The notes beneath the pieces are model-generated. The model had not been told where the DNA came from, did no database searches, and saw only the letters and a list, made by a program, of their open reading frames with translations. From the NCBI GenBank assembly GCA_016178505.1, contig JACOTG010000272.1:1-42025 (forward strand): 42,025 nucleotides of DNA, written 5' to 3'. A program made the translations under genes and the position numbers. Shown here piece after piece: positions 14,291 through 42,025 of the stretch; within the stretch, counting starts at the first letter, position 1, and the number at the start of each line of letters is the position of its first letter. Origin of the DNA: Planctomycetota bacterium. GTDB lineage: Bacteria; Planctomycetota; JACOTG01.

Positions 14291-14304
14291 GTCGTAAATC
14301 TCGA

Positions 14305-15998: not shown

Positions 15999-16186
15999 AG
16001 CGGCGCGACCTGATCCATCATCTCGAAGAGAACAACTGCCGATTCGTTCGAGAGGGCGCCAAACACTCGTGGTACGCCGCGCCCGACGGTCACTCGTACT
16101 CGGCAATTCCTCGCCATCGCGAGATCGTCGACTTCCTGGTCCGCAAGATCTGTCGCGAACTCGGTGTGCCGGATCCGCAGCGATAG
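15995..16186 (+). CDS. hicA: HicA family mRNA interferase toxin (YcfA-like)
   Basis: The 63-aa sequence MKRRDLIHHLEENNCRFVREGAKHSWYAAPDGHSYSAIPRHREIVDFLVRKICRELGV fits the HicA pattern (kel.k.L...G......kGSH..y.....g...t.P.H..e...g.....l...g). Confidence 0.75.
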   Translation: MKRRDLIHHLEENNCRFVREGAKHSWYAAPDGHSYSAIPRHREIVDFLVRKICRELGVPDPQR

Positions 16187-16445
16187 TCGGAACAGTCGTC
16201 CGTCATTCCGACCTCGACCCGTTGCGCCGGCGTCGCTCCTCGCCAATGCCGCCGGCGATTCCATCGCGCGCCAGGATTCGCCCGACTTCTCGTGCGACTT
16301 CGAGGATGGGCCCGCGCTCGTGCAAGAACTGCAGAGCTGCGTTCACAGATGCCGTCGCCGACATGCGGCCAAGCCAACAGAATCAGTCGCATGAGTTGCG
16401 TTGCCGGTCGAGGACGCGTAGCCTTCAGGTTCGGAAGAGGAACGC

Positions 16446-17461: not shown

Positions 17462-19201
17462 CTACTGAATCCGCAGCACGACCGCGTTCGTGACGCTGTA
17501 GCCGGTCGGGTTGCCGGCGCCGGAATCCTGGAGTACGCCTTGCACCGTGAACGTGATCGGATTCGCGAGACCCGAGTTGCGCGGGAGCGTCCACGGCGCG
17601 CGCGCCGGCGCGCCGCCAATCGAGCCGCCCGCACCGCAAACGGCCGCAGGCAGCCCACCACTGAGGCACTTGAACGGCTGCGGTCGCAGCGATGGCTGCA
17701 GCGGCGTCGGATTCACTGTGCACCCGAGCGTTTGGTTCATCGCGCGAAGATCGGTCTGGAAGACGGGTCCTCCGATCCAAATCCACATCCCGTACCGCCC
17801 GGATGCGGGACCCTGCGGTGCCGCGACGAGCGAGATGTGGAAGGCCGTGTGCGTCGGCACGGTCACCGTGCCGGTGGCCCCGTTGATCGTGAGGACATCG
17901 GCGACGGGTCCGGCGCCCGAGTTGACCGTGCCGTCCTTGCACGTCGCGCGATCGCGCACGAAGACGTCCCACCCCGCGTTCGGATCGTTCGAGATGAGGT
18001 TCGACGCGAGGCTCGCGTACGCGACGAATCGTCCATCGCCCGACACCGCCGCGCCGCGACTTTGGTTGTTCCCTTCGACGCCGTCCGTGCTCACGCTCGC
18101 GCGCAGCGTGCGGAAGAGCCCGCCTTGGCGGTCGTACTCGAACACGTCGAGTTCGCCATTCGTGTCGTTGGCGACGAAGTTGGTCGCGAAGCTCTCGAAC
18201 GCGACGTATCGTCCGTCTGCCGAGATGGCCGCCGCATCGCTTTGCTGATTGGCCTGCGTTCCGCCCGCATCGACCGTGATTCGCGTCGTCGTGTCGCCCG
18301 TACGATCGCGCACGTAGATGTCGATGTATGGTCCGACGTCGTTGGGGTCGAGATTCGTCGCGGAGCTCGAGAACGCGACGTACCGTCCGTCACCCGAGAT
18401 CGACGGCGCCGAGTTCGTCCCGTCGGATTCGGTGCCACCGGCGGCGACGCTCACTTTTTCCGTCATGCCGGCCGCAAGATCACGCGCGAAGACGTGCTGG
18501 AAGCCGTTCGAGGCCCCGGCCACGAGATTGGTTGCGAGGCTCGTGAACGCAACGAATGCGCCATTTGCCGAGATCGATGGATTCAGGCTCTCGTTGTTGC
18601 CGCTGTTCCCGAGGAGATTGATGCTCGCGAGAACGGTCGTCCCCGCAACGCGGTCGCGGACGAACACGTCGTTGCGTCCGTTCGTGTCGAGCGCCACGAG
18701 GTCGGATGCCGTGCTGTAGAACGCGACGTAGCGTCCGTCCGCGGAGATCGACGGCGCGTGACTTTGGCCGTTCGGGAATCCGCCGCCGATCGCGACGCTC
18801 GCGAGAGTGGTCGTGCCGCCCACGCGATCGCGAACGAAGATGTCGTAGGTGTTCGGAACGTCACCGGCGACGAGGTTTTGCGCGCGGCTTTCGAATGCGA
18901 CGTAGCGTCCGTCCGCCGAGATCGAAGGGTTCGCGCTGGCGTTTTCTGCCTGCGTGCCGCTCGAGTCGACGCTTGCTTCTGCGGACGTCCCGGTGTTTCG
19001 ATCGAACACGAAGATCCGCTCGAACCCGCCGCCGATCTGGTAGGCAACGTAACGTCCGTCAGCGGAGATCGACGGGCGCGCCGACGTCGTTCCGTTCGCG
19101 ACCGTGTTGAGCACGCGCGTCGTGACCTGAGCGTGGGCTCGGCCGATGAAGCCGAACGCAAGCGACATCGCAATCGAAGCACCGACGACGAGACGAGTCA
19201 T
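17462..19201 (-). CDS. Secreted TolB-like (PD40/WD40-like beta-propeller repeat) protein ending in the shared CTD (CTD family member B)
   Basis: Signal peptide MTRLVVGASIAMSLAFGFIGRAHA (Met at 19201; the ORF extends to 19270). About 9 repeats of ISADGRYVAF.S.A.NLV..DTNG..DVFVRDR follow. The C-terminus has ..LGCTVNPTPLQPSLRPQPFKC..GYSVTNAVVLRIQ. Confidence 0.8.
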   Translation of the reverse strand: MTRLVVGASIAMSLAFGFIGRAHAQVTTRVLNTVANGTTSARPSISADGRYVAYQIGGGFERIFVFDRNTGTSAEASVDSSGTQAENASANPSISADGRYVAFESRAQNLVAGDVPNTYDIFVRDRVGGTTTLASVAIGGGFPNGQSHAPSISADGRYVAFYSTASDLVALDTNGRNDVFVRDRVAGTTVLASINLLGNSGNNESLNPSISANGAFVAFTSLATNLVAGASNGFQHVFARDLAAGMTEKVSVAAGGTESDGTNSAPSISGDGRYVAFSSSATNLDPNDVGPYIDIYVRDRTGDTTTRITVDAGGTQANQQSDAAAISADGRYVAFESFATNFVANDTNGELDVFEYDRQGGLFRTLRASVSTDGVEGNNQSRGAAVSGDGRFVAYASLASNLISNDPNAGWDVFVRDRATCKDGTVNSGAGPVADVLTINGATGTVTVPTHTAFHISLVAAPQGPASGRYGMWIWIGGPVFQTDLRAMNQTLGCTVNPTPLQPSLRPQPFKCLSGGLPAAVCGAGGSIGGAPARAPWTLPRNSGLANPITFTVQGVLQDSGAGNPTGYSVTNAVVLRIQ

Positions 19202-19369
19202 GGCTGCCTCCTTGTGAGAAGCACGTCGCCTTTCGGCGATACCGGGCTTCGGTTCTCCTGGTGGAATCACATTGAGCGGCGGGCGCTCAGCCGGATCGAT
19301 CCAACTTCGCGCGCGGCCAAGATCGATGGCGGAGTATGCTCCCGCTCGCGCGCGAATCGCAATCGGAAA

Positions 19370-20269: not shown

Positions 20270-22966
20270 TCAGTTCACGCGGAGGATGATCGCATTGGTC
20301 ACGCTGGCGCCCATCCGGTTCGCCGAGCCGACGTCGCGGATCACTCCCTGCAACGTGACGACTCTCGCCGAGCCGAGGCCCGCGCTCGAGCGCAGAGTCC
20401 ACGGGGCTATCGGCGGACCGGGGCGACTGCGCGCCGCGCCGCAACGCATCCCATTCGATCGGCCGCCTCCGACGCATTGCACGGGCTGCGGCAACTGGCC
20501 GGCGTGAAGCGGAGTCGGATTCGCGACGAGGCCGAGGCGCGTGCCTCGGCGCTCGAGCGCCACGCAGTTCCTCGGCTCGCCGTTCCACATCCACAGCACG
20601 TATTGGCCGCCGACGGATCCGGCGGGAGCAGCATCGAGGTGCACTTCGAGTGGTGAGCCGACGGCGGTGTTGACCACGCGCCGCGCGTCGCCCGCCGTTC
20701 GGTTCACGAAGAGAACGTCGGCGATCGATCCGGCCCCGGCGTTCACGTTTCCGCGTCGCACGGATGCCGTGCCTTCCCACCGCGCGAGGTTGCCCGCGAC
20801 AGCGGTCCCGATTCTCGTGAAGCTACCGCCTACGTACAGCGCCGGTCCTTTGCCATCATCGAAGGCGCCAAGAGCGCTCACCCCGAGCGAAGAAGCGTTG
20901 CCGTTGAATGCGTCTCCCAGTTCCGACCAGGCGACTCCATTCCAGCGAGTCACCACGAACTCGTACGCGGCGAATCCGCCGGCATGGAGGGCGGCGCCCG
21001 ATCCGTCGTCGAACACCGACAGCGCACCGATGCCCGTCGGGCGAGAGGGGTCCGAGGCGTCACCCACCACGGAGAACCCAGTGCCGTTCCAGCGGGCCAG
21101 CGCCTGCGCTTCAACGCCTCCCGCAGTCGTGAAGCCGCCGCCGACGTAGAGCGCCGGGCCGGAGCCGTCGTCGAAGGCAGCGAACGAATCAACCACGCCG
21201 GACGAATTGGAACCAACGCCCGCGCCGACGGGCGACCAGCCGTTCCGAGTCCATCGCGCGAGGTTCGACATCGGCACGCCGCCGACCGTGGCGAAGTGAC
21301 CGCCGGCGAACAGCGCCGACCCGCTGCCGTCATCGAACGAGCGTAGCGCCAGGACTTGCGTTCCCACTCCTGACGCGATCGTCCCGCCTGGCGAAAGCGC
21401 TGACCACGCGCTGCCGTTCCATCGGGCGATGAAGATCGCGCGGACTCCTCCCGCGAGGCCGAACGAGCCGCCGGCGTAGAGCGCCGGGCCCGTCCCATCG
21501 TCGTGAACGACGAGCGTGTCGACGGGACCGTTCATCCCGCTCGAGAGCGGCGACCAACTCGTCCCGTTCCAACGCGCGATGTCCGACGCGGGGACGCCGC
21601 CCGCCATCGTGAAGTATCCCCCGGCGAAGAGCGCCGGGCCCGTGCCGTCGTCGAACACGGCGAGCGCTCGAACGTCGCCGTCCATGCCGCCGCCGAGAGA
21701 GGCCCAGTTGCTGCCGTTCCAGCGAGCCACGTCGTTCAGCGCCATCGCGGTCCCACTCGAGAAATCGCCCCCGACGTAGAGGGCGGTTCCCGTACCGTCG
21801 TCGAACGTCGCGAGCGCGTGAACTTTTCCAGTGATTCCCCGCGTCACGGCCGACCACGACTGTCCGTCCCAGCGCGCGATGTAATGCGCCTCGGTGACGG
21901 GTTGGTTCACGCCGACGAAGCGTCCCCCCGCGAAGAGCACGTTTCGGCCCGCTTCCGGACAGGACGCAATCGTCCGTGCCTCGCCATTGGTGTTGCTCGA
22001 GAGCGCGGACCAGTCGACGCCATTCCATCGGGCGACGCTGGCGAAGCCTGCGCTGTAGAGCGCCGGTCCGCTTCCGTCGTCGTGGATCGCGAACTTGTTC
22101 AAGCCGATCCTCTGGATCGACGTCCACGTGTTCCCGTCCCAGCGAGATCCGACGTGAAGCCCTCCGGCGTAGAGTGCGGAGCCGGCACCGTCGTCGAAAG
22201 TAATGAGCGCGTTCACGTCGTCGGCGAGCCCGCCGCCGACTCCGGACCACGCAGCACCATTCCACCGTGCGACGTGCCTCGCCGAGATTCCTCCGATGGT
22301 GGTGAATTCGCCTCCGGCGAAGAGCGCCGGCCCCGTGCCGTCGTCGTAAACCGCGAGAGCGTGGACCGGGCCGTTCGCACCGCCCGCAAGCGGCAGCCAG
22401 GCGGAGCCGCTCCACTTCGCGAGATAGTTGACTCGCTCACCGCTCGATGTCCGAAATCGCCCGCCCGCGAAAAGCGCCGGTCCGGTCCCGTCGTCGAACG
22501 TGGCGAGTGCAAGGACCATTCCGTCGACGCCGTTGCCGAGAGCGGACCAGCGGCTTCCGTTCCAGCGAGCGACGCCGTTGGCGGCGACGTCGCCGGCCTG
22601 GGTGAAGCCACCTCCGGCATAGAGCGCGGGGCCCGTGCCGTCGTCGTGAACGAAGAGTTCGCGAACGGTCGCGTTGGTCCCGCTGCCGAGTGGGCTCAAC
22701 GCCGTGCCGTTCCACCGCGCGATCCGAGAGAGCGACTCCACGCCGTCCGTCACGAATTGACCGCCGACGTAAAGCGCGGGACCGCTGCCGTCGTCGAACG
22801 CGGCTGCCGCTTGGACGTCATCGTCGAGGCCCGGAGTCGCGAAGAGCCCTGCGGTCCACTCCCCGCAAGCGTCTTCCGCCGCGCAGGGCGATGACGCGAG
22901 CATCGCCGTGAGCGATCCCGCGATGAGCAAAGAACGACCGGGAACGCTCCGCAGAATCGAGATCAT
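20270..22966 (-). CDS. Secreted protein with about 15 tandem roughly 50-aa Kelch-like beta-propeller repeats ending in the shared CTD (CTD family member C)
   Basis: Signal peptide MISILRSVPGRSLLIAGSLTAMLASSPCAA. The repeat consensus is ARWNG(S/T)aWS.LG.G.NG.V.AL..FDDGtGPALYaGG.F..AGGv.A. The C-terminus has ..LGLVANPTPLHAGQLPQPVQC..GASVTNAIILRVN. Confidence 0.8.
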   Translation of the reverse strand: MISILRSVPGRSLLIAGSLTAMLASSPCAAEDACGEWTAGLFATPGLDDDVQAAAAFDDGSGPALYVGGQFVTDGVESLSRIARWNGTALSPLGSGTNATVRELFVHDDGTGPALYAGGGFTQAGDVAANGVARWNGSRWSALGNGVDGMVLALATFDDGTGPALFAGGRFRTSSGERVNYLAKWSGSAWLPLAGGANGPVHALAVYDDGTGPALFAGGEFTTIGGISARHVARWNGAAWSGVGGGLADDVNALITFDDGAGSALYAGGLHVGSRWDGNTWTSIQRIGLNKFAIHDDGSGPALYSAGFASVARWNGVDWSALSSNTNGEARTIASCPEAGRNVLFAGGRFVGVNQPVTEAHYIARWDGQSWSAVTRGITGKVHALATFDDGTGTALYVGGDFSSGTAMALNDVARWNGSNWASLGGGMDGDVRALAVFDDGTGPALFAGGYFTMAGGVPASDIARWNGTSWSPLSSGMNGPVDTLVVHDDGTGPALYAGGSFGLAGGVRAIFIARWNGSAWSALSPGGTIASGVGTQVLALRSFDDGSGSALFAGGHFATVGGVPMSNLARWTRNGWSPVGAGVGSNSSGVVDSFAAFDDGSGPALYVGGGFTTAGGVEAQALARWNGTGFSVVGDASDPSRPTGIGALSVFDDGSGAALHAGGFAAYEFVVTRWNGVAWSELGDAFNGNASSLGVSALGAFDDGKGPALYVGGSFTRIGTAVAGNLARWEGTASVRRGNVNAGAGSIADVLFVNRTAGDARRVVNTAVGSPLEVHLDAAPAGSVGGQYVLWMWNGEPRNCVALERRGTRLGLVANPTPLHAGQLPQPVQCVGGGRSNGMRCGAARSRPGPPIAPWTLRSSAGLGSARVVTLQGVIRDVGSANRMGASVTNAIILRVN

Positions 22967-25479: not shown

Positions 25480-28400
25480 GTGATGGTTCAGTCGTCGTTG
25501 CTGTTCGCCGTGGCCTCGTTGCTCTCGCCGGGCGGCGAGCCGCAGGGCTACTACCGAAGTCCTGCCATCCACGGGGACACGATCGTCTTCTCGTCGGAAG
25601 GCGATCTGTGGAAGGTGCCGACGAAGGGCGGCGTCGCGACGCGCCTCACGTCGCATCCGGGCGAAGAGTCCGATCCGGCGATCTCGCCCGACGGCTCGAC
25701 GCTCGCGTTCGTCGCCGAGTACGAAGGCCCGCGCGAGATCTACACGATGCCGCTCAACGGGGGACTGCCGACGCGCCGCACGTTCGACGCCTCGCGGGTC
25801 GACGTCGCGGGGTTCACGCCGGACGGCAAGCTCCTCTATTCGACGGACGCGTACTCGACGCTGCCGCAGTCGCAGCTCGTGAAGCTCGATCTCGCGAGCG
25901 GCGAGCGCGTCGTCATCCCGCTCGCGCAAGCGAGCGACGGCGTCACCGACGACTCCGGGAAGACGCTCTTCTTCACGCGCCTTCCGTTCCAAGGGAGCCA
26001 CACGAAGCGCTATCAAGGCGGGACCGCGCAAAACCTCTGGCGGTTCGCCGACGGCGACGCCGAAGCGACGCCGCTCACTGCGGATTACGCGGGCACGAGC
26101 AAGAACGCGATGTGGTGGAAGGGCCGCGTCTACTTTGCGTCCGACCGCGACGGCACGATGAACCTCTGGTCGATGACCGCGGACGGCAAGGACCTTCGCC
26201 AGCTCACGTACCACGTCGGCCTCGACGTCGCGCATCCCTCGCTGTCCGACGGCAAGATCGTCTATCAGCTCGGCGCCGATCTGCACGTCGTGGACGTCGC
26301 GTCCGGCGCGGGCACCGCCGAGGGGAGTCCGATCGCGATCACGCTCACGTCGGACTTCGACCAAACGCGCGAGCACTGGGTCGCGAAGCCGATGGACTAC
26401 CTGACGACGGCGCATCTGTCGCCGGACGGCGATCGCCTCGTGCTCACCGCGCGAGGCCGCGTCTTCGTCGCTCCGCAGAAGCAGGGGCGGTTCGTCGAAA
26501 CGACGCGGGCCGGCGGCGTCCGCTATCGCGTCGCGCGATTCCTGCCCGACGGCAAGTCGCTGGTCGCGATGTCGGACGAGTCAGGCGAGATCGAGCTGTG
26601 GAAGCTGCCCGCGAACGGAGTCGGCGCCGGCGAACAGCTCACGACGGACGGCGAGGTGCTGCGGTGGGACGCGCTGCCGTCGCCCGACGGCGCGTGGATC
26701 GCGCACTACGACAAGAATTGGCGACTGTGGATCTGGGACGTGAAGGCGAAGACCGACCGCAAGATCGACGAATCGACGATCGCCGACTTCGAAGGACTGC
26801 GCTGGTCACCTGACAGTCGGTGGCTCGCGTACGTCACGCCGAGCGACAACTTCCTCGAGCGCATCAAGCTGTGGCGCGCGTCGGACGGCTCGATCACGTT
26901 CGCCACGACGGACCGATTCGACAGCTCGAGCCCCGCATGGAGCCCCGATGGACAGTGGCTCTATTTCCTCTCGGCGCGCCACCTCGAGACCGTCGTCTCG
27001 AGCCCATGGGGCAACTATCAGCCCGAGCCCTACCTCGACAAGACGACCAAGATCTACCAGCTCGCGTTGAAGACGGGCTTGCGCTCGCCGTTCGCGCCGA
27101 ACGACGAATTGCACCCCGCGAAGCCGAAGGACGAGAAGAAAGACGACAAGGACAAGAAAGACGAGAAGAAGGCGGACGACGCGAAGCCTCCGGTGCCCGA
27201 GGTCGTCGTCGATCTCGCGGGAATCGAAAAGCGCCTACTCGAGTTGCCCGTCCCGGCGGGCAACTACGCCAACCTATCCGTGAACGACAAGGCGCTCTTC
27301 TTCGAGCGCACCGACGTGAGCGCGAGCAAGACGAGCCTCGTCGCGGTCGCGGTCGGCAACGAGAACGTCGAAGTGAAGGAAGCCGTCTCGGACATTCGCT
27401 CGAGCGAGCTGTCGGCGGACGGCAAGAAGATGCTCGTTCGCAAGGGCGATGCGCTCTACGTCGTCGACGCGCCCGTCGGGCCGGTTTCGGCGGAAGATCT
27501 CGAGAAGAAGAAGGTCGACCTCTCGGCGTGGAAGATGTCGGTGAGCCCGCGCGAGGAGTGGCGCCAGATGTTCACCGAGGCGTGGCGCCTCGAGCGCGAC
27601 TACTTCTACGATCGCGGCATGCACGGCGTGGACTGGAAGGCGATGCTGAAGAAGTACCTGCCTCTCGTCGACCGCGTGCGCACTCGCGAGGAGCTGTCCG
27701 ATTTGATCGCGCAGATGGTGTCGGAGTTGTCCGCGCTCCACATCTTCGTACATGGCGGCGACCGCCGGCACGGATCCGAGGAGATCGATCCGGCGTCGCT
27801 CGGCGCGCGGCTCGTGCGCGATCCGGCGCGCGGCGGCTATCGCGTCGACCACGTGTATCAGACGGATCCCGACGAGCCCGATCAACTGTCACCGCTCGCG
27901 CGGCCCGGCGTCGACGTGAAGGACGGCGACGTGATCGACTCGATCGACGGCGTGGCCGCTCTCGCCGTTCCCGATCTCGCGCTGCTCCTCCGCGAGAAGG
28001 CGAACCGCCAGGTGCTGCTGCACGTGAAGCCCGCGAGCGGCGAGGAGCGCGACGTCATCGTGATGCCGGTCGACGGTGGCCGCGCGCGCGATCTTCGCTA
28101 CGACGAGTGGGAGTACACGCGCCGCCTCGCCGTCGACCAGCTCGGCGGGGGCGACATCGGCTACGTCCATCTTCGCGCGATGGGCCGCGACAACTGGACC
28201 GAATGGGCGAAGGGCTTCTACCCCGTGTTCACGCGCAAAGGTCTCGTCATCGACGTCCGCCACAATCAAGGCGGCAACATCGACAGTTGGATCCTCGAGA
28301 AGCTCCTGCGGAAGGCGTGGTTCTACTGGAGCGAGCGCGTGGGGCGAGCGCCGAGCTGGAACATGCAGTTCGCGTTTCGCGGACACGTCGTCGTCCTGTG

Positions 28401-28770
28401 CGACGAGTGGACGGCGTCCGACGGCGAGGCGTTCAGCGAGGGATTCCGGCGGCTCGGGCTCGGCAAGGTGATCGGCACGCGCACGTGGGGCGGCGAGATC
28501 TGGCTCAGCTCGAGCAACTTCCTCGTCGATCGCGGGATCGCGACGGCGGCCGAGTACGGCGTGTTCGGGCCGGAGGGCAAGTGGCTGATCGAGGGCCGCG
28601 GCGTCGAGCCGGACATCGTCGTCGACAACCTGCCGCACGCGACCTTTCAGGGCAAGGACGCGCAGCTCGAGGCCGCGGTCGACGAGCTGAAGCGGGAGAT
28701 CGCGGCGAGCCCCGTCGTGCTGCCGCCGGTGCCGGCGCATCCGGACAAATCCCTGAAGGCGGGGCGATGA
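25480..28770 (+). CDS. Tricorn protease homologue (peptidase S41B) with N-terminal beta-propellers, a PDZ-like region and a C-terminal S41 catalytic domain
   Basis: The N-terminal TolB-like propeller repeats are ..SPDGSTLAFV.., ..GKLLYSTD.. and ..MNLWSMTADGKDLRQLT... The C-terminal S41 region is ..GNIDSWILEKLLRKAWFYWSERVG..VVVLCDEWTASDGEAFSEGFRRLGLGKVIGTRTWGG... A length of 1096 aa is typical of bacterial tricorn homologues. Confidence 0.85.
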   Translation: MMVQSSLLFAVASLLSPGGEPQGYYRSPAIHGDTIVFSSEGDLWKVPTKGGVATRLTSHPGEESDPAISPDGSTLAFVAEYEGPREIYTMPLNGGLPTRRTFDASRVDVAGFTPDGKLLYSTDAYSTLPQSQLVKLDLASGERVVIPLAQASDGVTDDSGKTLFFTRLPFQGSHTKRYQGGTAQNLWRFADGDAEATPLTADYAGTSKNAMWWKGRVYFASDRDGTMNLWSMTADGKDLRQLTYHVGLDVAHPSLSDGKIVYQLGADLHVVDVASGAGTAEGSPIAITLTSDFDQTREHWVAKPMDYLTTAHLSPDGDRLVLTARGRVFVAPQKQGRFVETTRAGGVRYRVARFLPDGKSLVAMSDESGEIELWKLPANGVGAGEQLTTDGEVLRWDALPSPDGAWIAHYDKNWRLWIWDVKAKTDRKIDESTIADFEGLRWSPDSRWLAYVTPSDNFLERIKLWRASDGSITFATTDRFDSSSPAWSPDGQWLYFLSARHLETVVSSPWGNYQPEPYLDKTTKIYQLALKTGLRSPFAPNDELHPAKPKDEKKDDKDKKDEKKADDAKPPVPEVVVDLAGIEKRLLELPVPAGNYANLSVNDKALFFERTDVSASKTSLVAVAVGNENVEVKEAVSDIRSSELSADGKKMLVRKGDALYVVDAPVGPVSAEDLEKKKVDLSAWKMSVSPREEWRQMFTEAWRLERDYFYDRGMHGVDWKAMLKKYLPLVDRVRTREELSDLIAQMVSELSALHIFVHGGDRRHGSEEIDPASLGARLVRDPARGGYRVDHVYQTDPDEPDQLSPLARPGVDVKDGDVIDSIDGVAALAVPDLALLLREKANRQVLLHVKPASGEERDVIVMPVDGGRARDLRYDEWEYTRRLAVDQLGGGDIGYVHLRAMGRDNWTEWAKGFYPVFTRKGLVIDVRHNQGGNIDSWILEKLLRKAWFYWSERVGRAPSWNMQFAFRGHVVVLCDEWTASDGEAFSEGFRRLGLGKVIGTRTWGGEIWLSSSNFLVDRGIATAAEYGVFGPEGKWLIEGRGVEPDIVVDNLPHATFQGKDAQLEAAVDELKREIAASPVVLPPVPAHPDKSLKAGR

Positions 28771-28821: not shown

Positions 28822-29010
28822 GTGACCACTCCCAACGAGACCACGGCGTCCCCTTATCTCGGCGCGAGCGTGGAATCGTACGACTCGCTCATTCGACGCG
28901 CCGTGCCGCAATACGACGAGATGACCGCGCGACTCGTCGACTACTTGCCGCCGACGGCCGCGCGCGCGCGCTCGAGCTCGAATGCGGGACGGGCAGTTCC
29001 TCGACGTCGT
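28822..29010 (+). pseudogene. N-terminal remnant of a class I SAM-dependent methyltransferase (truncated or frameshifted)
   Basis: MTTPNETTASPYLGASVESYDSLIRRAVPQYDEMTARLVDYLPPTAARA is followed, after a frame change, by ..RALELECGTG.., which is motif I of SAM methyltransferases. No sequence encoding the rest of the fold follows. Confidence 0.3.
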
Positions 29011-29116
29011 CGACGGCGAGATCCTGAGGCTCGATTGGAAGAACAGGCTGGCGGGCCACGCCACCTTCGGCTCTACTGGTCGTGGCGCCACGGGGCGCAG
29101 AAGGAGAAGACGGCCG

Positions 29117-31183
29117 GTGTTCGATCGAAGCGGAGCAAGTCGATGGGCGCGACTCTCCGCGATCGGCGGCGCGACGATTCTCGCCATCACGAGTTTTGCC
29201 GCAGGTCAAACGACGACTCGAATCAGCCTCGATTCCACGGGACACGAAATTCCCGGCGACTGCTTCGGCGTCATCTCGGCTAATGGGCGGTTCGTCGCGT
29301 TTCGGGCGGAAGCGGCGGGCGTCACTCCAGACGACACGGATCGAGCGCCCGACATCTTCGTCCGCGATCTCCTGACCGGCGCGCTGTCGCGCGTCAGCGT
29401 GTGGACGGACGGAAGCGATACCTACGGTTACAACTATTTCGAGTCCATCTCCGGCGATGGGCGCTTCGTGTCGTTCACGAGCCAGGTCTCAAACAGTGTT
29501 TTCGGCATTCTCATCCACGATCGCGATCCGGATCACGACGGCGTCTTCGACGAGGAACACGGCGAGACCACGATGGAGAGCGTGAACGATGACGGAGATC
29601 AGGCGAATGGCTCCTGTCGCGGTAGCTCGATTTCGGACGACGGACGCTTCGTCGCCTTCGAAAGCGTGGCGACGAACCTGGTGACCAACGATTCGAATCT
29701 GACGGACGACGTCTTCGTGCGCGATCGCTATGCCGGTGGAACGGTCTGCGCGAGCGTGAATCCTTCCGGTCGGCCGGGCAACGGATCAAGCGGCGCCCTG
29801 AACACGTTCGCCATCTCGGCGAATGGTCGCTACGTCGTTTTTCGAAGCGAAGCGAGCGATCTCGTCGACGGTGACACCAACGTGTTGGCAGACGTGTTCG
29901 TTCGCGACATCCAGACCCGAACCACGACGCGTGTGACCCTCGACTCCTCAGGCGAACAGGTGAACGGTTCTGCGGGGTGGGCCGTCGCGATATCCGCGGA
30001 CGGACGCTGGATTGTGTTTTCGGACACCGCGTCGAACATGGTTGCCGCAGACACGAACGGAAGAGAGGACGTCTTTGTCCGTGACATGCTGACCGGCACG
30101 AACTCTCGTGTGAGTGTGAACTCCGCGGGAGACGAAGCGGACGACTACAGCTACGTGTCGTCGATCTCGCCCGACGGACGGTTCGTCGCCTTCACGAGTC
30201 GAGCGCGCAATCTCGTGTCCTCCGCTACTGCCCCTTGGCTCGAGGTGTATCTCCACGACCGATGGAACGGTGAGACGGAACTCGTGAGCCAGGCCACCGC
30301 CGGCGTGCCGGCCGTCACGTACAGTGACGGCGGATCGGTTTCGGCGAACGGGCGATACGTCGTCTTCTACTCCAACGATTCGAACCTGGTGCCGCACGAC
30401 ACAGTTGGCTACTACGACGTTTTTCTGCGGAGTCGGTGGTCCGTGCGCGTCGCTTCGGTGATGCCCGCGTCGGGATCCGAGAGCGGCGGTGACTTCGTGC
30501 ACATCCGGGGCGAGGGGCTGACGAGCAGCGCGGCCACGAGCGTGACGATCGGCGGGGCGACGGCGACGATCGTGTCGGCCGCGTACGACGAGGTCACGGC
30601 GTGGACGCCGCCCGGGCGCGGCGTTGCGGACGTGATCGTGACGAGCGGCAACGATTCGTCCACGCTCCCGGCCGCGTTCACCTACGTCGACTCCCCGATC
30701 GCAGCGCGCTGGGGCGACGTTGGGCAAGGGCAGGGGACTCGCGAGAGCGTGCTCCTGCTGAACGCGACTTCGGGCGATTCGCTGTCTCGAGAAGTGCGCG
30801 TGCCGCGGAATCAGCCGATCCTTCTCGTGATGCTTCCGCCATCGACCCGGGCGACGGCGCGATTCGTCCTCTACGTTTGGGATCACCATCCAACAGCGAC
30901 GACGCTCACGACCTTGCCCGCTCATCTCGGCCGCAGCGTCTTTCCGCTGCCATTCCGTAGCGGGACGCCGCAACCGCGCGTGATCTGGAACAACGTCGGC
31001 TATCGGCAAACGCTCGGCGCGCCGACGTTCGCGTCGCAGCCGGCACCGTTTGTCGTTGCGAACCGCGCAAGCGGAATCGCAGGTGCCGTACGGCTCACGT
31101 TTCAGGGACTGATCGAAGATCCGGCGTCGCAGAGCCCGACCGGTTTCTCGGTGACGAACGCGATCCTTCTGCGGGTCGAGTAG
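29117..31183 (+). CDS. Secreted TolB-like beta-propeller + IPT/TIG domain protein ending in a divergent copy of the shared CTD (CTD family member D)
   Basis: The likely GTG start gives a signal peptide (V/M)FDRSGASRWARLSAIGGATILAITSFAAGQ; the ORF track starts at 28982. PD40-type repeats (ISANGRFVAFRAE..DIFVRD, ISDDGRFVAFESVATNLV..DVFVRDR and others) are present. The IPT/TIG-like module is ..SVMPASGSESGGDFVHIRGEGL..TIGGATATIV.. The C-terminus has ..FVLYVWDHHP..TPQPRVIWNNVG..GFSVTNAILLRVE. Confidence 0.75.
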   Translation: MFDRSGASRWARLSAIGGATILAITSFAAGQTTTRISLDSTGHEIPGDCFGVISANGRFVAFRAEAAGVTPDDTDRAPDIFVRDLLTGALSRVSVWTDGSDTYGYNYFESISGDGRFVSFTSQVSNSVFGILIHDRDPDHDGVFDEEHGETTMESVNDDGDQANGSCRGSSISDDGRFVAFESVATNLVTNDSNLTDDVFVRDRYAGGTVCASVNPSGRPGNGSSGALNTFAISANGRYVVFRSEASDLVDGDTNVLADVFVRDIQTRTTTRVTLDSSGEQVNGSAGWAVAISADGRWIVFSDTASNMVAADTNGREDVFVRDMLTGTNSRVSVNSAGDEADDYSYVSSISPDGRFVAFTSRARNLVSSATAPWLEVYLHDRWNGETELVSQATAGVPAVTYSDGGSVSANGRYVVFYSNDSNLVPHDTVGYYDVFLRSRWSVRVASVMPASGSESGGDFVHIRGEGLTSSAATSVTIGGATATIVSAAYDEVTAWTPPGRGVADVIVTSGNDSSTLPAAFTYVDSPIAARWGDVGQGQGTRESVLLLNATSGDSLSREVRVPRNQPILLVMLPPSTRATARFVLYVWDHHPTATTLTTLPAHLGRSVFPLPFRSGTPQPRVIWNNVGYRQTLGAPTFASQPAPFVVANRASGIAGAVRLTFQGLIEDPASQSPTGFSVTNAILLRVE

Positions 31184-33610: not shown

Positions 33611-36277
33611 ATGACCCACGAACCACAGTCGCATTCACCCGTCCGCTTCTTTTTCATCACGGCCCTCACGCTTGCGATCTCGACCGCGGTCGCGTCGGCT
33701 CAAAGCCCGTGTGCGGAATGGGCTCCGGGGTTGACCTCGTTTCCGGGCGTCGACGGCGTCGTGTATGCGTCGACCGTCTTCGACGACGGCACTGGCCCAG
33801 CGCTTTACGTCGGCGGCATCTTCTCGTCGGCCGGCGGTGTGGCCGCTCGCAACATTGCGAAATGGAATGGATCGGGCTGGTCGTCGCTCGGCGGGGGAGT
33901 CGGCGGAGGCTATCAGTCGATCCACGTGATGGCGGCGTTCGACGACGGCACGGGCCCCTCGCTCTACGTCGGCGGCGAACTCACGGATGCGGCGGGCATA
34001 CCGGTTCAGCATCTCGCGCGATGGAACGGCCACCAGTGGTCGGATCCGGCGTCGTTCATGAATGGCAACGTCGAGAGTCTCGGCGTCTACGACGACGGCA
34101 CGGGGCCTGCGCTGTTCATCGGAGGAGACTTCACGACCGCGGGCGGTGGCATCGGAAATCACATCGCAAAATGGGACGGCCGACAGTGGTCGTCGCTCGC
34201 CACCGGCGTCGACGGCCCGGTCCTCGGACAGACCGTCTTCGATGACGGCAGCGGCTCGGCGCTCTACGTCGTCGGCAACTTCGCGCTGTCTGGTTCCGTG
34301 TACAGCAATGGCGTCGCGCGATGGAATGGCACGGCGTGGTCTCGACTCGGGGCGGGAGCGGCGTCGTACTATCCGTGGTGCGCGGTCGTTTTCGACGACG
34401 GCACCGGCCCGGCGCTCTACGTGGCCGGCCCGTTCCACATGATGGACGGCATTCCGATGAACGGTTTCGCCCGGTGGAACGGGCACGAGTGGTCGTCGCC
34501 GCCGAACGGTGAGGGAACTCGATTGATGACCGTCTGGGACGATGGCACCGGCCCGGCCATCTTCTCTTCGGGGACCGGAACCATTCGGAAGTGGGATGGC
34601 CATCAATCCTCGACGGTACCAGGTGCACCGGGCCCATCAACTCTCACGGTGTACGATGACGGGAGCGGCGCCGCGCTCTTCGTCGGCGGAGACTTCACCC
34701 TCATTGGCGGCGCGTTCGTTCCGTTCATCGCGAAGTGGAACGGCGCGACGTGGTCGACGCTTGGGACTTTCGCCGGACCCAACGGTTGGACGAAGAGCAT
34801 CGCCAGCGCAGACGATGGCACGGGCCCGGCCGTGTACGTGGGAGGTGACTTCGGCGCCGTCGGGCAGGTGGCGGCGAATCACATCGCGCGATGGAACGGG
34901 ACGACATGGTCGCCACTCGGCCTCGGGATCGACGGCTTTCGCGATGCGACGGTTTCTGCAATTGCGGCTTTCGACGACGGCACCGGACCCGCGGTGTATG
35001 CAGGTGGATCGTTCTCCACCGCTGGCGAAATGCCGGCGTCCAACATTGCGAAGTGGAATGGGAGCACGTGGTCGCCGCTCGGGAGCGGTCTGAACGACCG
35101 TGTGCTTGCTCTCACGTCGTTCGACGACGGCAGCGGACCGGCACTCTACGTCGGCGGTCCGTTCCGCACGGCGGGAGGGGTACCGGCGGCGTACGTTGCG
35201 CGCTGGAATGGAAGCGCATGGTCCACGGTTGGCCGCGAGGCGACTGGAAGCATCGTCGCGTTCACCCTGTTCGATGGCGGAAGCGGTCCCTCATTGTGCG
35301 CACTCGGCGCGTTCACCTTCGGCTTCGGAGTCGCTCGGTGGACCGGCGTGAACTGGTCACCCGTGGGCGCTTTTTTTATGGGCAGTGGTTCGTCGTTGAC
35401 CGTGTTCGACGACGGCACCGGACCGACGCTCTATGCCGGTAACACGTACGGGGTCTCGCGGTGGAATGGGATCACTTGGGCGAACCTCGGAAGCGGAATG
35501 GATGATCGCATCCTTTCGCTCGCGACGTTCGACGACGGATCGGGCGCTGCGCTGTACGCGGCCGGACGGTTTCGGCACGCGAACGGCGTCGCGGCGAATA
35601 AGATCGCGCGATGGAATGGCACCTCGTGGTCGTCGCTCGCCGAGGGCTTGGGAGGCACGCCTCAGTCGGAGGTTTGGGCACTTGCGACGTTCAACGACGG
35701 CACCGGGCCGGCACTTTGTGCGGCGGGCACGTTCGTCACGGCGGGAGGTTTTGCCTCGCGCTTCTGCGCGCGCTGGGAAGTCGCACCGCGACGCGGAAAC
35801 GTGAGTGCGCGAATTGGCGAGACCGCAGACGTCGTTTACGTGAACGGATCCGCGGGCGACGCGACGCGAACCGTCACCGTCGGCCTCAGCCGATCGATTG
35901 ACGTCGAGCTGCGCGCGGCGCCCGGCGGGCCGTCTCCTGCACGCTATGTCTTGTGGAGCTGGCTCGGCGAACCGCAGCAACCGGTCGAGCTTCGAGTCGG
36001 CAGTTCGTCGCTCGGTTGCGTCGTGAACCCGACGCCGCTTCAGCCTGCGCAGATTCCGCAACCGTTTCGGTGCCTGCGAGGCCGGCTGGTTCCGCGAGCC
36101 GCGTGCAGCGGCGTGATCGAGGTCCCGAGCCCGGCAGCCGCGCCGTGGAGCCTGCACTTGCCGCAAGGCGTCGGCGCGCCGGTGGTGGTGACGCTGCAAG
36201 GCCTCATTCGCGACAAGAGCGCTCTGCATCCGTCGGGCTACAGCGTGACCAATGGCGTCATCCTGCGAGTCCGCTGA
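33611..36277 (+). CDS. Secreted protein with about 15 Kelch-like beta-propeller repeats ending in the shared CTD (CTD family member E); paralogue of 20270..22966
   Basis: Signal peptide ..VRFFFITALTLAISTAVASAQSP. It has the same repeat consensus (A.WNGs.WSsLG.G..g.v.a...FDDGTGPaLYvGG.F..AGG..a). The C-terminus has ..LGCVVNPTPLQPAQIPQPFRC..GYSVTNGVILRVR. Confidence 0.8.
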   Translation: MTHEPQSHSPVRFFFITALTLAISTAVASAQSPCAEWAPGLTSFPGVDGVVYASTVFDDGTGPALYVGGIFSSAGGVAARNIAKWNGSGWSSLGGGVGGGYQSIHVMAAFDDGTGPSLYVGGELTDAAGIPVQHLARWNGHQWSDPASFMNGNVESLGVYDDGTGPALFIGGDFTTAGGGIGNHIAKWDGRQWSSLATGVDGPVLGQTVFDDGSGSALYVVGNFALSGSVYSNGVARWNGTAWSRLGAGAASYYPWCAVVFDDGTGPALYVAGPFHMMDGIPMNGFARWNGHEWSSPPNGEGTRLMTVWDDGTGPAIFSSGTGTIRKWDGHQSSTVPGAPGPSTLTVYDDGSGAALFVGGDFTLIGGAFVPFIAKWNGATWSTLGTFAGPNGWTKSIASADDGTGPAVYVGGDFGAVGQVAANHIARWNGTTWSPLGLGIDGFRDATVSAIAAFDDGTGPAVYAGGSFSTAGEMPASNIAKWNGSTWSPLGSGLNDRVLALTSFDDGSGPALYVGGPFRTAGGVPAAYVARWNGSAWSTVGREATGSIVAFTLFDGGSGPSLCALGAFTFGFGVARWTGVNWSPVGAFFMGSGSSLTVFDDGTGPTLYAGNTYGVSRWNGITWANLGSGMDDRILSLATFDDGSGAALYAAGRFRHANGVAANKIARWNGTSWSSLAEGLGGTPQSEVWALATFNDGTGPALCAAGTFVTAGGFASRFCARWEVAPRRGNVSARIGETADVVYVNGSAGDATRTVTVGLSRSIDVELRAAPGGPSPARYVLWSWLGEPQQPVELRVGSSSLGCVVNPTPLQPAQIPQPFRCLRGRLVPRAACSGVIEVPSPAAAPWSLHLPQGVGAPVVVTLQGLIRDKSALHPSGYSVTNGVILRVR

Positions 36278-37738: not shown

Positions 37739-37936
37739 CGGCTCGCCGCCGCCGAACGCGGCTCCATTCGATCCGGCTGTTCCGGCCGCCTTCGGTTATC
37801 TTGCCCTCGGCTCGAGGCGCGACGGTGCTTCGAGCCGAGCGCCTCGCTGCGTCGCCCCACGAGATGGTCTCGCGGATGTGCACCGCTGATTTCGAGCGAG
37901 GCGAGAAACGCCACGCCATTCGAGGAGTGCCATCGC

Positions 37937-39493
37937 ATGAAGGCTTGGACCCTGCTGTCGTCGATCGTCATCGCGTCGCTCATCTGTGCGACGTTGGTTG
38001 CGCAAACTGAAACGCCGCCGGTCGACGCGGCGAAGAAGAAGCCCGAGCCCGAAGTCGAGGCGAAGCCGGCCGCGTCGCAGACGACGCATCAGATCACGAT
38101 CGACTGCAAGGTGCTGAGCTACACCGCGACCGCGGCCTGGCTCATCATGAAGGACGACAAGGACAAGCCGATCGCGCGCTTCGGCTACACCGCGTACACG
38201 AAGAACGGCGTCGACGACGTCCGCCGGCGCCCCGTGACGTTCGCGTTCAACGGCGGTCCGGGATCGTCGTCGATCTGGTTGCACATGGGCATCCTCGGCC
38301 CGCGGCGCGTGGTCGTGACCGACGCCGGCTACACGCCGCCGCCGCCGTCGCAGTGCGTCGACAACGCGTACACGCCGCTGGACGTCACCGACGTCGTGAT
38401 GATCGATCCCGTCGGCACGGGATTCAGCAAGCCGCTCGGCGAAGCGAAGGGCGCGGACTTCTGGGGCGTCGATCAGGACATCAAGTCCGTCGGCGCGTTC
38501 ATCAAGCGCTACGTCACGGAAAACGGCCGCTGGGCGTCGCCGAAGTACATCCTCGGTGAGAGCTACGGCGGCGTTCGTTCGGCGGGACTCGTCCAGTATC
38601 TGCAATCCGCGCACGGCATGAACTTCAACGGCGTCGTTCTCGTGTCGCCGTTCCTGAGCATGTTCTCGGGGATCGACGGCGTCGCGCTCGATCTGCCGCA
38701 CGTGCTCTACCTGCCGACGTTTGCCGCGACCGCGTGGTACCACGGCGCGCTCGCCGACAAGCCCGCGTCGCTCGAGGCCTACGTCGCCGAGGTCGAACGC
38801 TTCGCCACCGACGAGTACGCGCCCGCTCTGATGAAGGGCTACACCATTCCCGCGGCCGAGAAGAAGGCCATCGCGGCGAAGCTCGGCAAGTACACCGGCA
38901 CGAGCGCCGACTACTGGGAGAAGGCCGACCTCCGCGTCAGCCATCCGCAGTTCCTGCAAGAGCTGAAGCGAAGCCAGCGGCTGATCGCCGGCCGCATCGA
39001 CTCGCGCTTCATCGGCCCGTCGCTGAACGCGCACAGCGACAAGATGGACTACGATCCGTTCTTCCCCTCGATCGGGCCCGCGTACACCGCGGCATTCCTC
39101 GACTACCTGCACTCGGAGCTGAAGTTCGGCAACGACGAGGAGTACAAGGTGTCCGCGTTCGACGTGAAGTGGGACTGGCACCACAAGCAGCCCGGCCTGA
39201 GCGAGGAAGACGGTCGCGACATGGCCATGACGAACACGGTGCCCGACCTCGCAATGGCGATGAAGATGAACCCCAGCCTGAACGTGCTCGTCCAGCAAGG
39301 CCGCTTCGATCTCGCGACGCCGCAATTCGCGATGCAGCACGACCTCGATCACCTCGACATCCCGCCCGAGGCGAGACAGCGCATTCGCATCCAGTACTAT
39401 GAGGCCGGGCACATGATGTATGTGAACGAGCCGTCGGCAATGGTCTTCCGCGAGAGCCTCGTGAAGTTCATCGGTGACACGGACCGACTGTGA
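37937..39493 (+). CDS. Secreted serine carboxypeptidase, peptidase family S10
   Basis: Signal peptide MKAWTLLSSIVIASLICATLVA. The S10 hallmarks are NGGPGSSS and the catalytic-serine motif GESYGG, and the spacing matches S10 carboxypeptidases. Confidence 0.85.
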   Translation: MKAWTLLSSIVIASLICATLVAQTETPPVDAAKKKPEPEVEAKPAASQTTHQITIDCKVLSYTATAAWLIMKDDKDKPIARFGYTAYTKNGVDDVRRRPVTFAFNGGPGSSSIWLHMGILGPRRVVVTDAGYTPPPPSQCVDNAYTPLDVTDVVMIDPVGTGFSKPLGEAKGADFWGVDQDIKSVGAFIKRYVTENGRWASPKYILGESYGGVRSAGLVQYLQSAHGMNFNGVVLVSPFLSMFSGIDGVALDLPHVLYLPTFAATAWYHGALADKPASLEAYVAEVERFATDEYAPALMKGYTIPAAEKKAIAAKLGKYTGTSADYWEKADLRVSHPQFLQELKRSQRLIAGRIDSRFIGPSLNAHSDKMDYDPFFPSIGPAYTAAFLDYLHSELKFGNDEEYKVSAFDVKWDWHHKQPGLSEEDGRDMAMTNTVPDLAMAMKMNPSLNVLVQQGRFDLATPQFAMQHDLDHLDIPPEARQRIRIQYYEAGHMMYVNEPSAMVFRESLVKFIGDTDRL

Positions 39494-39605
39494 GCAAATC
39501 CACGAGATCGTGTGCACGCGCGCGGCGAACCCAGTGAACGCAACCGAGACTGCACATGGTCGGCGACGTGCCGATCTAGCGACGATCCTCGATGTGTTGA
39601 CGGAG
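39494..39605. repeat. Direct repeat unit A (sequence immediately 3' of the S10 gene), duplicated at about 40821..40935
   Basis: ..CCACGAGATCGTGTGCACGCGCGCGGCGAACCCAGTGAACGCAACCGAG..GGCGACGTGCCGATC..CGATGTGTTGACGGAGT aligns with ..CCACGAGATCGTGTACAAGCGCGTGGCGAACGCCGTGAACGCAGCGGAG..GGCGACGTACCAAG..CGATGTGATGGCCGAGT. Confidence 0.6.
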
Positions 39606-39807
39606 TTCGGACTGCTCACTAGAACCCGAGGTGACCAGGCTCATCCGCCCGAGAAACCAGAAAGCAATTCGTGTTCGCTACAGAGGAAGCAAGTGATCGG
39701 CGATCGTGCCGAGTAATCCGTGGCGATCGGCAAGGCAGGACGCCGGCTTCAGAAAAGGGGAGTGCTTCGTGGCGCGATCGCGAGGCGGGGATCACACGGG
39801 GAAAACG

Positions 39808-40095
39808 CTAGCGGTAGGTGTCCTCGCGACGTAAGCCGCAGTACGAAACGACGACGTCACGGCCGTAGATGTCGTAGCGAAAACGGAAACGGCCGAGCGC
39901 GAGGCGCCATTGCCCCTCGCCTCGAGGAACGTTCGTGAGCTTCTTCACGTGGTGCACGCCGGATCGGTTCACGGGATCGGTGCCAAGGATGAGACGGGCG
40001 TTCGCCTGAAGGGCGGCGAACTCGGGGTGAGCCTTGACGAGCGCCCGTGCGAGGCGTTCGTAGCGTGGCGATGTACGGACAACGAAAAGGGTCAT
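39808..40095 (-). CDS. relE: RelE/ParE family type II toxin
   Basis: MTLFVVRTSPRYERLARALVKAHPEFAALQANARLILGTDPVNRSGVHHVKKLTNVPRGEGQWRLALGRFRFRYDIYGRDVVVSYCGLRREDTYR has the RelE/ParE signature (..L.g...g.wrlRiG.yRi.Y.i....v.v..v.hR.d.Y). Its start overlaps the antitoxin stop (ATGA). The remainder of ORF 39808..40620 is non-coding. Confidence 0.75.
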   Translation of the reverse strand: MTLFVVRTSPRYERLARALVKAHPEFAALQANARLILGTDPVNRSGVHHVKKLTNVPRGEGQWRLALGRFRFRYDIYGRDVVVSYCGLRREDTYR

Positions 40096-40406
40096 GCGCC
40101 TGCGCGACGCTTGGCCTTCTTGGTTTCTCCGCGCAACTCCCTCAAGAACTCGTCCATTGGCCGGCTCTTGCCGGCGCGGTATTCGGCGTTGCTCTTCTTG
40201 ATGTCGGCGCGGACCTTCGGGTCTTGAAGCTCGAGGTAGTCCTCGAACTCGTTGATGTCCATGAGGCCGACAACGGGGATGCCGTCCTTTTCGAGGATGA
40301 CGTATTCCTTGCCGAGATGCACGCGGCGCACAAGGGCGCCGAGGTTGATGCGGGCTTTGGTGAGGGGGAGTCGGTGAATCATGGGTTTGGTGGCCTTGCG
40401 AACCAT
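40092..40406 (-). CDS. phd: Phd/YefM family type II antitoxin
   Basis: ..YVILEKDGIPVVGLMDINEFEDYLELQDPKVRADIKKSNAEY.. is the Phd/YefM core. A strong RBS, GGAGGT, lies 8 nt upstream of the ATG at 40406. The gene sits upstream of and is coupled to the relE-like gene. Confidence 0.75.
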   Translation of the reverse strand: MVRKATKPMIHRLPLTKARINLGALVRRVHLGKEYVILEKDGIPVVGLMDINEFEDYLELQDPKVRADIKKSNAEYRAGKSRPMDEFLRELRGETKKAKRRAGA

Positions 40407-40424
40407 TCTCTACCTCCAGTCGAC

Positions 40425-40480
40425 GAGGGTGAGCGTGTCTAATTGAACAACATTGATCAACGTTAAGTATAGTCGAAGCG
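40425..40480 (-). promoter_or_regulatory. AT-rich promoter/operator region of the phd-relE operon, containing repeated TTGA(A/T)CAA half-sites and an AACGTT palindrome
   Basis: The plus-strand sequence TCTAATTGAACAACATTGATCAACGTTAAGTATAGTCGAAGC forms a sharply AT-rich island in roughly 70% GC DNA directly upstream of the antitoxin gene. Direct and inverted TTGAACAA / TTGATCAA repeats are typical of autoregulated TA operators. Confidence 0.4.
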
Positions 40481-40589
40481 TGGCGTTCCGTCAAGGCGGG
40501 CGTTCCCACCGCAGCCGGGTGGAGGTGGGGGTGGTGGGTTACCGCTTCCATCCCCCTGACCCGAACCGTGAAGCCCCGTTCCTTCCTGA

Positions 40590-40707
40590 AGTAGAGGCGG
40601 GGCGATTCCGCTTCCAGCATTGGCAGAACGTCGGCGCCGGCGCCGGCGCCGAAGTCGCGCTGCGTCTCGAGGCGTGGAAGTTCATCAGCGAGACGGACAG
40701 ACTGTGA
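40590..40707 (+). pseudogene. Degenerate duplicate of the 3' end of the S10 carboxypeptidase gene (encodes ..RFRFQHWQNVGAGAGAEVALRLEAWKFISETDRL*, compare ..RIRIQYYEAGHMMYVNEPSAMVFRESLVKFIGDTDRL*)
   Basis: Similarity runs at both protein and DNA level (GTGAAGTTCATCGGTGACACGGACCGACTGTGA versus TGGAAGTTCATCAGCGAGACGGACAGACTGTGA). About 115 bp downstream lies the duplicated post-gene segment at 40821..40935. Confidence 0.55.
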
Positions 40708-40820
40708 GCGATTCGGGATTGCAGGCGCTTGCGTGTTGGGGCGTTCCGTCTAGCACGAGCGTGAGCGGGTGGTTCGTTGCGGTCGTCCCGTCGCTGGACG
40801 CGACGTAGACTCGCGTCGGC

Positions 40821-40935
40821 CGAAGGCGATCCCACGAGATCGTGTACAAGCGCGTGGCGAACGCCGTGAACGCAGCGGAGGCCGGATGTGATCGGCGACG
40901 TACCAAGGGCGCGGCGATCGTCGATGTGATGGCCG
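40821..40935. repeat. Direct repeat unit B (copy of the sequence downstream of the S10 gene)
   Basis: See repeat unit A; it is about 75-80% identical over roughly 110 bp. Confidence 0.6.
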
Positions 40936-41120
40936 AGTGCCTACGGATCACCAAGACCCATGCCGACCACCGCCGACGCCCGGCGAAACCGAAATCCTCA
41001 TCGTGATCACTGCGCGGAGCCGATACTCTGCGGCGCGGGAACCGGTCGTCGGCGGTTGCGGATCTTGGGTCCCGACGAGGGTTCCAGGCGCCCGCTCTTT
41101 TCACCCTTTCGAGAGCCAGC

Positions 41121-41998: not shown

Positions 41999-42025
41999 TG
42001 AGATGGATGGCCTGACATCCCGGTC

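Follow-up and report, generated by a model that had tools for sequence, protein, structure and literature searches.

Two groups of described C-terminal tags are among the closest counterparts of the element reported here. The C-terminal domains of the type IX secretion system (T9SS) are 70–100 amino acids long, and the short tripartite signals of the LPXTG, PEP-CTERM, GlyGly-CTERM and MYXO-CTERM kind combine a motif, a transmembrane helix and a basic tail within about 25–35 residues. Planctomycetota have unusual cell envelopes, and the delivery of proteins to their surface is poorly understood. The present analysis concerns the C-terminal tail of the protein encoded by gene D (29117–31183, forward strand) on a contig of 42,025 bp and 66% G+C from an uncultured Planctomycetota metagenome-assembled genome (MAG); this whole stretch of DNA is referred to below as the window. 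A preliminary description had presented the tail of D as a Cys-free divergent variant of a tail shared by five proteins of the window (A to E). It is no one-off copy and belongs to a separately conserved subtype, termed type II, which is marked by the motif WNNxG...LG.PT.PS.PAPS. The reading favoured overall, to which we assign a probability of roughly 0.55, is that D carries an intact tail of this conserved type, which as a whole domain would mark the protein for sorting to the surface or anchoring there, with the Cys residues of other tails serving as optional staples.

The tail of D and its type II core

The D tail is a Cys-free type II domain of about 159 residues with a predicted immunoglobulin (Ig)-like beta-sandwich fold (30704–31180, +; profile match to residues 594–752 of the stop-to-stop open reading frame (ORF)), and it ends at the stop codon. 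Against a profile made from the other four window tails only (A, B, C and E), it scores 77.7 bits (E 7e-17, search space of 1.8 billion sequences), and the match spans profile positions 6–163 and D residues 2–157. The homology to the other window tails is full-length and far above chance, bearing out what the preliminary description had assumed. The motifs quoted there (LLNATSGDSL, FVLYVWDHHP, FPLPFRSGTPQPRVIWNNVG and the terminal VRLTFQGLIEDPASQSPTGFSVTNAILLRVE) are all found in the tail, which was counted to contain 0 Cys, and the domain stands as delimited except for its start, which lies about 25 nucleotides further upstream, near 30704. End-to-end alignment of the D tail with those of A, B, C and E gives 30–34% identity, compared with 36–46% among these four, and D is the least similar of the five.

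The cores of homologues from other samples are of two types. The type I core reads LGC-x-NPTP-x5-PQPFRC-x(8-11)-C, and the type II core reads LP-x-x-LG...P-x-P...(I/V)WNN(V/L/I)G-x4-LG-x-PT-x-PS-x-PAPS and lacks the last two Cys positions of type I (C2 and C3; the columns C0 to C3 are described below). The core of D, TLPAHLGRSVFPLPFRSGTPQPRVIWNNVGYRQTLGAPTFASQPAPF (30911–31051, +), has the type II form, with WNNVG at 30986–31000 (+), and stands in the place of the type I segment LGC-x-NPTP...PQPFRC-x(8-11)-C. None of the four columns holds a Cys in D; the residues found there are Ala at C0, Arg at C1 (CGC, 30932–30934, +), Ile at C2 and Thr or Leu at C3. The replacement of the Cys core noted earlier holds for the part after PQP, but the first half (xPxPF....TPQP) is kept: FPLPF....TPQP of D aligns with NPTPL....PQP of type I, and divergence begins only after PQP.

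A WNNxG-type core is present in 15 sequences including D, that is, in at least 14 others from several metagenomes and MAGs. The type II proteins are D, P0008, P0010, P0011, P0012, P0013 and P0162/163, and the loci are L001, L002 (two adjacent genes), L004, L007 and L008 (NCBI MAGs CAZQZX01 and JAUIME01) and L023–L029 (Joint Genome Institute (JGI) metagenomes). A metagenome scan started from three type II sequences returned 7 loci. In a word-indexed homologue search, the five-tail profile retrieved 14 proteins and the type II profile 5, 2 of the latter being new. Fourteen positions are invariant in six type II tails (D, P0008 and P0010–P0013): P62, L70, P71, G75, N95, N96, G98, L103, G104, S110, P112, A113, P114 and G123. 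Many type II tails keep C0 together with a Cys at a shifted C1 position, C1' (IGTxCF); others, such as D, are Cys-free. All five tails recovered from MAG CAZQZX01 are type II-like, all of the at least 17 tails of MAG OFTM205 are type I, and the window genome contains both types. Outside the core of about 43 residues, the mean identity of D is 36% to type II and 35% to type I tails; type II is therefore defined by the core only. The two subtypes use a single scaffold and are distinguished by an exchangeable insert: type II retains the sandwich scaffold and all family-invariant residues, and a Cys-free motif loop replaces the loop between C2 and C3.

Upstream of the tail, D reads as an exported protein with PD40 and IPT/TIG domains and a predicted signal peptide. 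NCBI places a GTG start at 29117 (MBI1853564.1, 688 amino acids, annotated as "IPT/TIG domain-containing protein"), and the longest ORF begins at an ATG (28982–31183, +) and encodes 733 amino acids; family member P0017 corresponds to the window translation of D from residue 46 on. The putative Sec signal peptide (29117–29209, +; MFDRSGASRWARLSAIGGATILAITSFAAG/Q cleavage) was called by eye from the translation, as a heuristic without a dedicated predictor. It is followed by a region of PD40-type beta-propeller repeats with approximate bounds 29210–30400 (+; Pfam PF07676, 33.2 bits over the whole protein), which also gives weak matches to NCBIfam TolB/Dpp5 propellers, and by an IPT/TIG domain at 30452–30685 (+; residues 491–568 of the 733-residue ORF; PF01833, E 2.1e-10).

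Extent, cysteines and fold of the tail family

The tail family is large, and neither Pfam nor NCBIfam covers it. Exhaustive searching with the profile yielded 1,819 clusters (50% identity) at E ≤ 1e-3, of which 1,340 reached E ≤ 1e-10; the genome-derived matches all come from uncultured MAGs, most of them labelled Planctomycetota, and the contigs of OFTM205 alone carry at least 17 copies. No Pfam family covers the tail in any of 79 full-length members, and no NCBIfam model does so in these members or in the window proteins. Searched in isolation, the D tail matches no Pfam family at E ≤ 10; the single match of the E tail (0.059) is spurious. A sequence-profile search of the PDB returned only designed Ig proteins (E 0.06–0.2), and a literature search found no description of the domain.

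Among 159 full-length domain matches, 155 end at most 6 residues from the protein C-terminus, and the family profile search found a single copy in every protein, with no tandem arrays. The 79 members carry 37 Pfam passenger families, including PD40 (15), Rax2-like (12), FG-GAP types (about 10), M23 peptidase, HYR, VWA, beta-helix, CHRD, Big_9, He_PIG and LamG, to which NCBIfam adds PHB depolymerase, peptidoglycan (M23) endopeptidases and a glycosylhydrolase. The passengers thus comprise beta-propellers, peptidases, hydrolases, and lectin-like and Ig-like domains, mostly behind a signal peptide; a crude heuristic assigns a signal peptide to 97 of 117 full-length members.

Conservation of Cys and other residues was counted over 194 aligned, non-identical tails. 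Four Cys columns are conserved in type I: C0, three residues ahead of the G-x-V-N start, in 129 tails; C1 (LGC) in 147, with the two-residue-shifted C1' in 10; C2 (PQPFRC) in 170; and C3, 8–11 residues past C2, in 164. C2 and C3 occur together in 164 tails and are both missing from 24, with C2 alone in 6 and C3 alone in 0 (Fisher p 2e-25), and C0 and C1/C1' are both present in 122, both missing from 30 and single in 35 and 7 (p 4e-11); these p values ignore shared ancestry (phylogenetic non-independence), which counts against the stapling part of the favoured reading. The coupled pattern suggests two disulfides, C0–C1 and C2–C3. The former would connect the N-terminal strand with the central part of the domain and the latter would staple a loop of 9–12 residues, so that the Cys pairs may be structural, stapling the insert after export without being read by any partner.

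No canonical Cys at all is present in 8 of the 194 tails. As two of the eight, P0158 and that of L020 2356–3486, are type I tails that keep the core NPTP..PQPF (NATP..PQPFR), loss of Cys has been repeated and tolerated. The earlier suggestion that the Cys residues are not essential is upheld in this sense: they are dispensable for keeping the domain and do not define the tail. Its count of three Cys in A, B, C and E needs amendment, however, since the canonical number is four with the additional C0, and one of the three core Cys is missing from C.

A six-frame profile scan found exactly five tails in the window, and all five proteins have, by eye, a signal-peptide-like N-terminus. The tails other than that of D are of type I. 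Paralog A, a PPC-domain protein (199–1641, −; tail 202–681), and paralog B, with PD40 repeats (17462–19270, −; tail 17465–17944), have C0, C1, C2 and C3. Paralog E, with Rax2-like beta-propeller repeats (33611–36277, +; tail 35789–36274), has C1, C2 and C3 and no C0. Paralog C, also with Rax2-like repeats (20270–22966, −; tail 20273–20761), reads LGL where type I has LGC; it lacks C0 and C1 and keeps C2 and C3, which fits a pairwise loss of a putative C0–C1 disulfide. The tail of C also contains a rare Cys at RNCVAL, in a column with Cys in 14 of the 194 tails. Several PD40 repeats of B give weak partial matches to positions 18–59 of the tail profile (17465–19369, −), which probably reflect shared strand-like sequence (DVFVRD and DVLFVNG) rather than homology.

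The tails were modelled with AlphaFold2, using an alignment of 18 sequences for E, with about six type II sequences behind the loop of D. The model of the type I tail of E is all-beta, with a predicted local distance difference test (pLDDT) score of 92.7 and a predicted template modelling (pTM) score of 0.88. The D model has a pLDDT of 74.2 and a pTM of 0.73, with well-supported sandwich strands. Foldseek gave no match to the PDB at E ≤ 1e-3, with TM-scores of at most 0.41. In these models, the tail is an Ig-like beta-sandwich of about 160 residues with a large family-specific insert, and SVTNAV-x-L-x-V forms the predicted last strand.

With columns counted from "YVDSP", eight residues ahead of the RWGDVG that opens the tail, G83, Q141 and N159 are invariant over the 194 tails, and D146 (191/193), P122, G11, V13, W66 and the Asn of VNGS are nearly so. 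The conserved blocks comprise the N-terminal strands (G-x-V-N..G...DVL-VNGS-G), the central Y-x-x-W-x-W, the P-x-P/PQP segment, A-P-W/F, T-x-Q-G-x-I-x-D and S-V-T-N-A-V. D has all invariant and near-invariant family residues (G83, Q141, N159; D146, P122, W66, G11, V13). Its most conserved C-terminal block, TFQGLIEDPASQSPTGFSVTNAILLRVE (31097–31180, +), which forms the last three sandwich strands in the models, contains the invariant Gln (31103–31105, +) and Asn (31157–31159, +) and the near-invariant Asp (31118–31120, +). The N-G-S turn (30767–30775 in D) is often an N-x-S/T sequon (NAT in D, NRT in C, NGS in E), with Asn in 178, Gly in 168 and Ser or Thr in 144 of the 194 tails; a structural turn and a glycosylation site are both possible. 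A domain with a Thr-Gln ester or Lys-Asn isopeptide cross-link, considered on account of the invariant Gln, Asp and Asn, was set aside, as the alignment has no invariant Lys or His.

The preliminary description had named the extreme C-terminus as the best candidate for the recognised part of the tail. SVTN-A-V-x-L-x-V is indeed highly conserved, with N159 invariant, but G83 and Q141 are equally invariant, and the last 28 residues are the densest conserved block but one of several. A free linear signal fares less well, as the last residues form a core strand in the models and the end is not free in the N-terminal copies and in P0108, discussed below. Whole-domain conservation, the folded model and the N-terminal copies together weaken a linear signal at a free C-terminus and favour recognition of the folded domain; the pattern of conservation is no less compatible with whole-domain recognition than with a linear C-terminal signal.

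Proposed function of the tail and competing explanations

The proposal that the tail is a sorting or anchoring tag follows from its distribution: it is lineage-restricted and single-copy, and it forms the very C-terminus of dozens of signal-peptide proteins whose passengers are unrelated. The whole domain would sort proteins exported to the periplasm to the cell surface or outer membrane, or anchor them there, via a partner; its use would resemble that of T9SS C-terminal domains, through another partner. Type II would be a functional alternative tag, read by the same partner via a shared face of the scaffold or by a different one via the loop, and D would be a normal type II member. The classification and structural parts of this reading are well supported, whereas the sorting or anchoring function, suggested by the distribution of the tail, has roughly even odds. 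A more specific form, in which the tail is the cargo tag of an undescribed sorting or surface-attachment system of one uncultured Planctomycetota lineage and types I and II serve different receptors or destinations, is tentative and clearly less probable.

Several observations weigh against the favoured reading. In P0085, P0134 and P0160, the domain immediately follows the signal peptide and precedes, for example, a beta-helix or a Gly-rich region; an N-terminal copy is probably also present in L006 3670–6477 (−), and P0108 has 16 residues past the domain; a portable binding module fits these proteins better than a strict C-terminal signal does. Among the best 150 family representatives, D alone is type II, and residues 85–108 of its model, the type II loop, have pLDDT values below 50, probably owing to the few type II sequences in the alignment. 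Recurrent neighbours at 29 loci were limited to Ser/Thr kinases, of which these genomes have many, and a single sigma-54 regulator; both were judged non-specific, and no partner gene that would connect the domain to sorting or anchoring emerged.

The principal alternative is that the tail is a portable ligand-binding module, for instance for carbohydrate or a cell-wall polymer, and that types I and II differ in specificity through the insert. An Ig-like sandwich with a long variable insert would suit such a role, as would the conserved aromatics of Y-x-x-W-x-W and the invariant polar Q141, D146 and N159; copies that directly follow the signal peptide show that a free C-terminus need not be required, and the passengers include hydrolases and lectin-like domains, which are frequent carriers of binding modules. 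Known binding modules typically vary more in position and number, however, whereas 97.5% of the tail copies lie at the extreme C-terminus, ending 0–3 residues past the last strand, always as a single copy and never in tandem, and the tail matches no Pfam carbohydrate-binding or anchoring family at E ≤ 10. On balance this explanation is possible but doubtful. That the tail is a divergent T9SS C-terminal domain, which such a system would recognise and cleave, is far less probable. The beta-sandwich, the extreme C-terminal position and the many signal-peptide proteins with varied passengers would agree with it, and one member has the Pfam family GBD_T9SS_assoc as a passenger. Neither TIGR04183 nor TIGR04131 matches any tail, though, including those of the five window proteins at E ≤ 1; the only weak TIGR04183 match, below the cut-off, is to the PPC region of A (residues 131–186), and at about 160 residues the tail is longer than T9SS domains. 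No SprA, PorV or PorU gene occurs in the 42-kb window, the rest of the genome not having been searched for T9SS machinery. To our knowledge, the T9SS is confined to the Fibrobacteres-Chlorobi-Bacteroidetes group and is not known in Planctomycetota, and a literature search found no paper that ties the two together.

Two further explanations concern D alone. Its tail could be a decaying, non-functional remnant of type I that lost its Cys and is drifting, as might be read from its position as the least similar window tail, from the low confidence of its modelled core and from the Arg codon CGC at C1, one substitution away from the Cys codon TGC. Against this, the ORF is intact, G+C at third codon positions is alike in the tail (0.75) and the body (0.78), all invariant and near-invariant scaffold residues are kept, the motif of the replaced core is conserved in 14 or more further sequences of unrelated samples, and MAG CAZQZX01 yields type II-like tails only; decay is accordingly disfavoured and improbable. 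A sequencing or assembly artefact as the source of the missing Cys, raised in the preliminary description, can be practically dismissed. An independent MAG assembly (GCA_016200105.1, contig JACQFJ010000066.1) matches window positions 19117–40637 over 21.5 kb at 99.94% identity, with 12 mismatches and no gaps. The tail DNA of D is 100% identical in the two assemblies, although both may stem from one study, and the D proteins differ at one residue, in the propeller; the two MAGs represent essentially the same population. No other reading frame over the D tail restores the Cys core, the region contains no tandem repeats or low-complexity sequence, and the Cys-free core architecture recurs in other samples. 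The frames and the second assembly likewise rule out a frameshift or error as the origin of the D core, and the lack of repeats rules out a tandem-repeat origin.

One Cys-free paralogue would be of modest interest by itself; the moderate interest of D comes from the large unannotated family, the two core subtypes and the coupled Cys. If the tail is a whole-domain tag, a family of about 1,800 clusters on dozens of exported proteins per genome offers a handle for finding the machinery that recognises it, and the optional Cys narrow what a partner could read. The constant scaffold (G-x-V-N...DVL-VNGS-G, Y-x-x-W-x-W, T-x-Q-G-x-x-x-D, S-V-T-N), together with a second version of the loop that bears a motif, provides a natural variant pair for testing. 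For annotation, the results make a case for a new domain model with two sub-models.

Other features of the window and comparison with described systems

A tricorn-like protease of 1,096 residues (Tricorn_C1, PDZ_Tricorn, Peptidase_S41 and PD40; 25480–28770, +) adjoins D upstream on the same strand. S41 enzymes recognise C-termini via PDZ domains; nothing in the present data ties the protease to D or to the tails. The window also encodes a Ser/Thr kinase (2365–4653, −), an SPFH/Band 7 protein (11540–14290, +) and an S10/S33-type hydrolase (37937–39493, +). The C-terminal part of a 1,659-residue ORF (about 10598–12100, −) reads as a sigma-54-dependent response regulator with receiver, AAA+ and Fis-type helix-turn-helix domains, and a similar regulator lies near the type II tail gene of L028. 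Many very long ORFs on both strands at 2152–8600, 12000–16300 and 37796–42000 are rich in Arg and Asp and are antisense artefacts that stem from the high G+C content.

PPC domains (PF04151), like the tail, are beta-sandwiches at the C-terminus of secreted proteins and are thought to aid secretion; there is no homology between the two, and paralog A has PPC domains upstream of its tail as well. Bacterial Ig-like domains (IPT/TIG, Big, PKD, FN3, macroglobulin MG) differ from the tail in lacking its large family-specific insert and strict terminal placement, and none of the Pfam Ig-like families TIG, Big_x, PKD, fn3, He_PIG and CARDB matches it at E ≤ 10.

With the LPXTG, PEP-CTERM, GlyGly-CTERM and MYXO-CTERM signals, the tail shares its nature as a lineage-restricted C-terminal tag on dozens of exported proteins per genome. 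In contrast to their motif, helix and basic tail, it is a soluble fold of 160 residues, and D ends in ...GFSVTNAILLRVE (...SVTNAILLRVE), with no hydrophobic helix and no basic cluster. An NCBIfam scan of the 79 members listed 25 families, none of them a sorting-domain family; together with the tail sequence, this excludes the short tripartite signals. The C-terminal domains of the T9SS (type A, TIGR04183; type B, TIGR04131) differ from the tail, which gives no match to their profiles, is about twice as long, has an inserted loop of 40–60 residues, occurs in Planctomycetota MAGs and has a few N-terminal copies. Like the tail, however, they are terminal beta-sandwiches on many signal-peptide proteins with unrelated passengers, are present as many paralogues per genome, and bring the protein to its end directly past the last strand.

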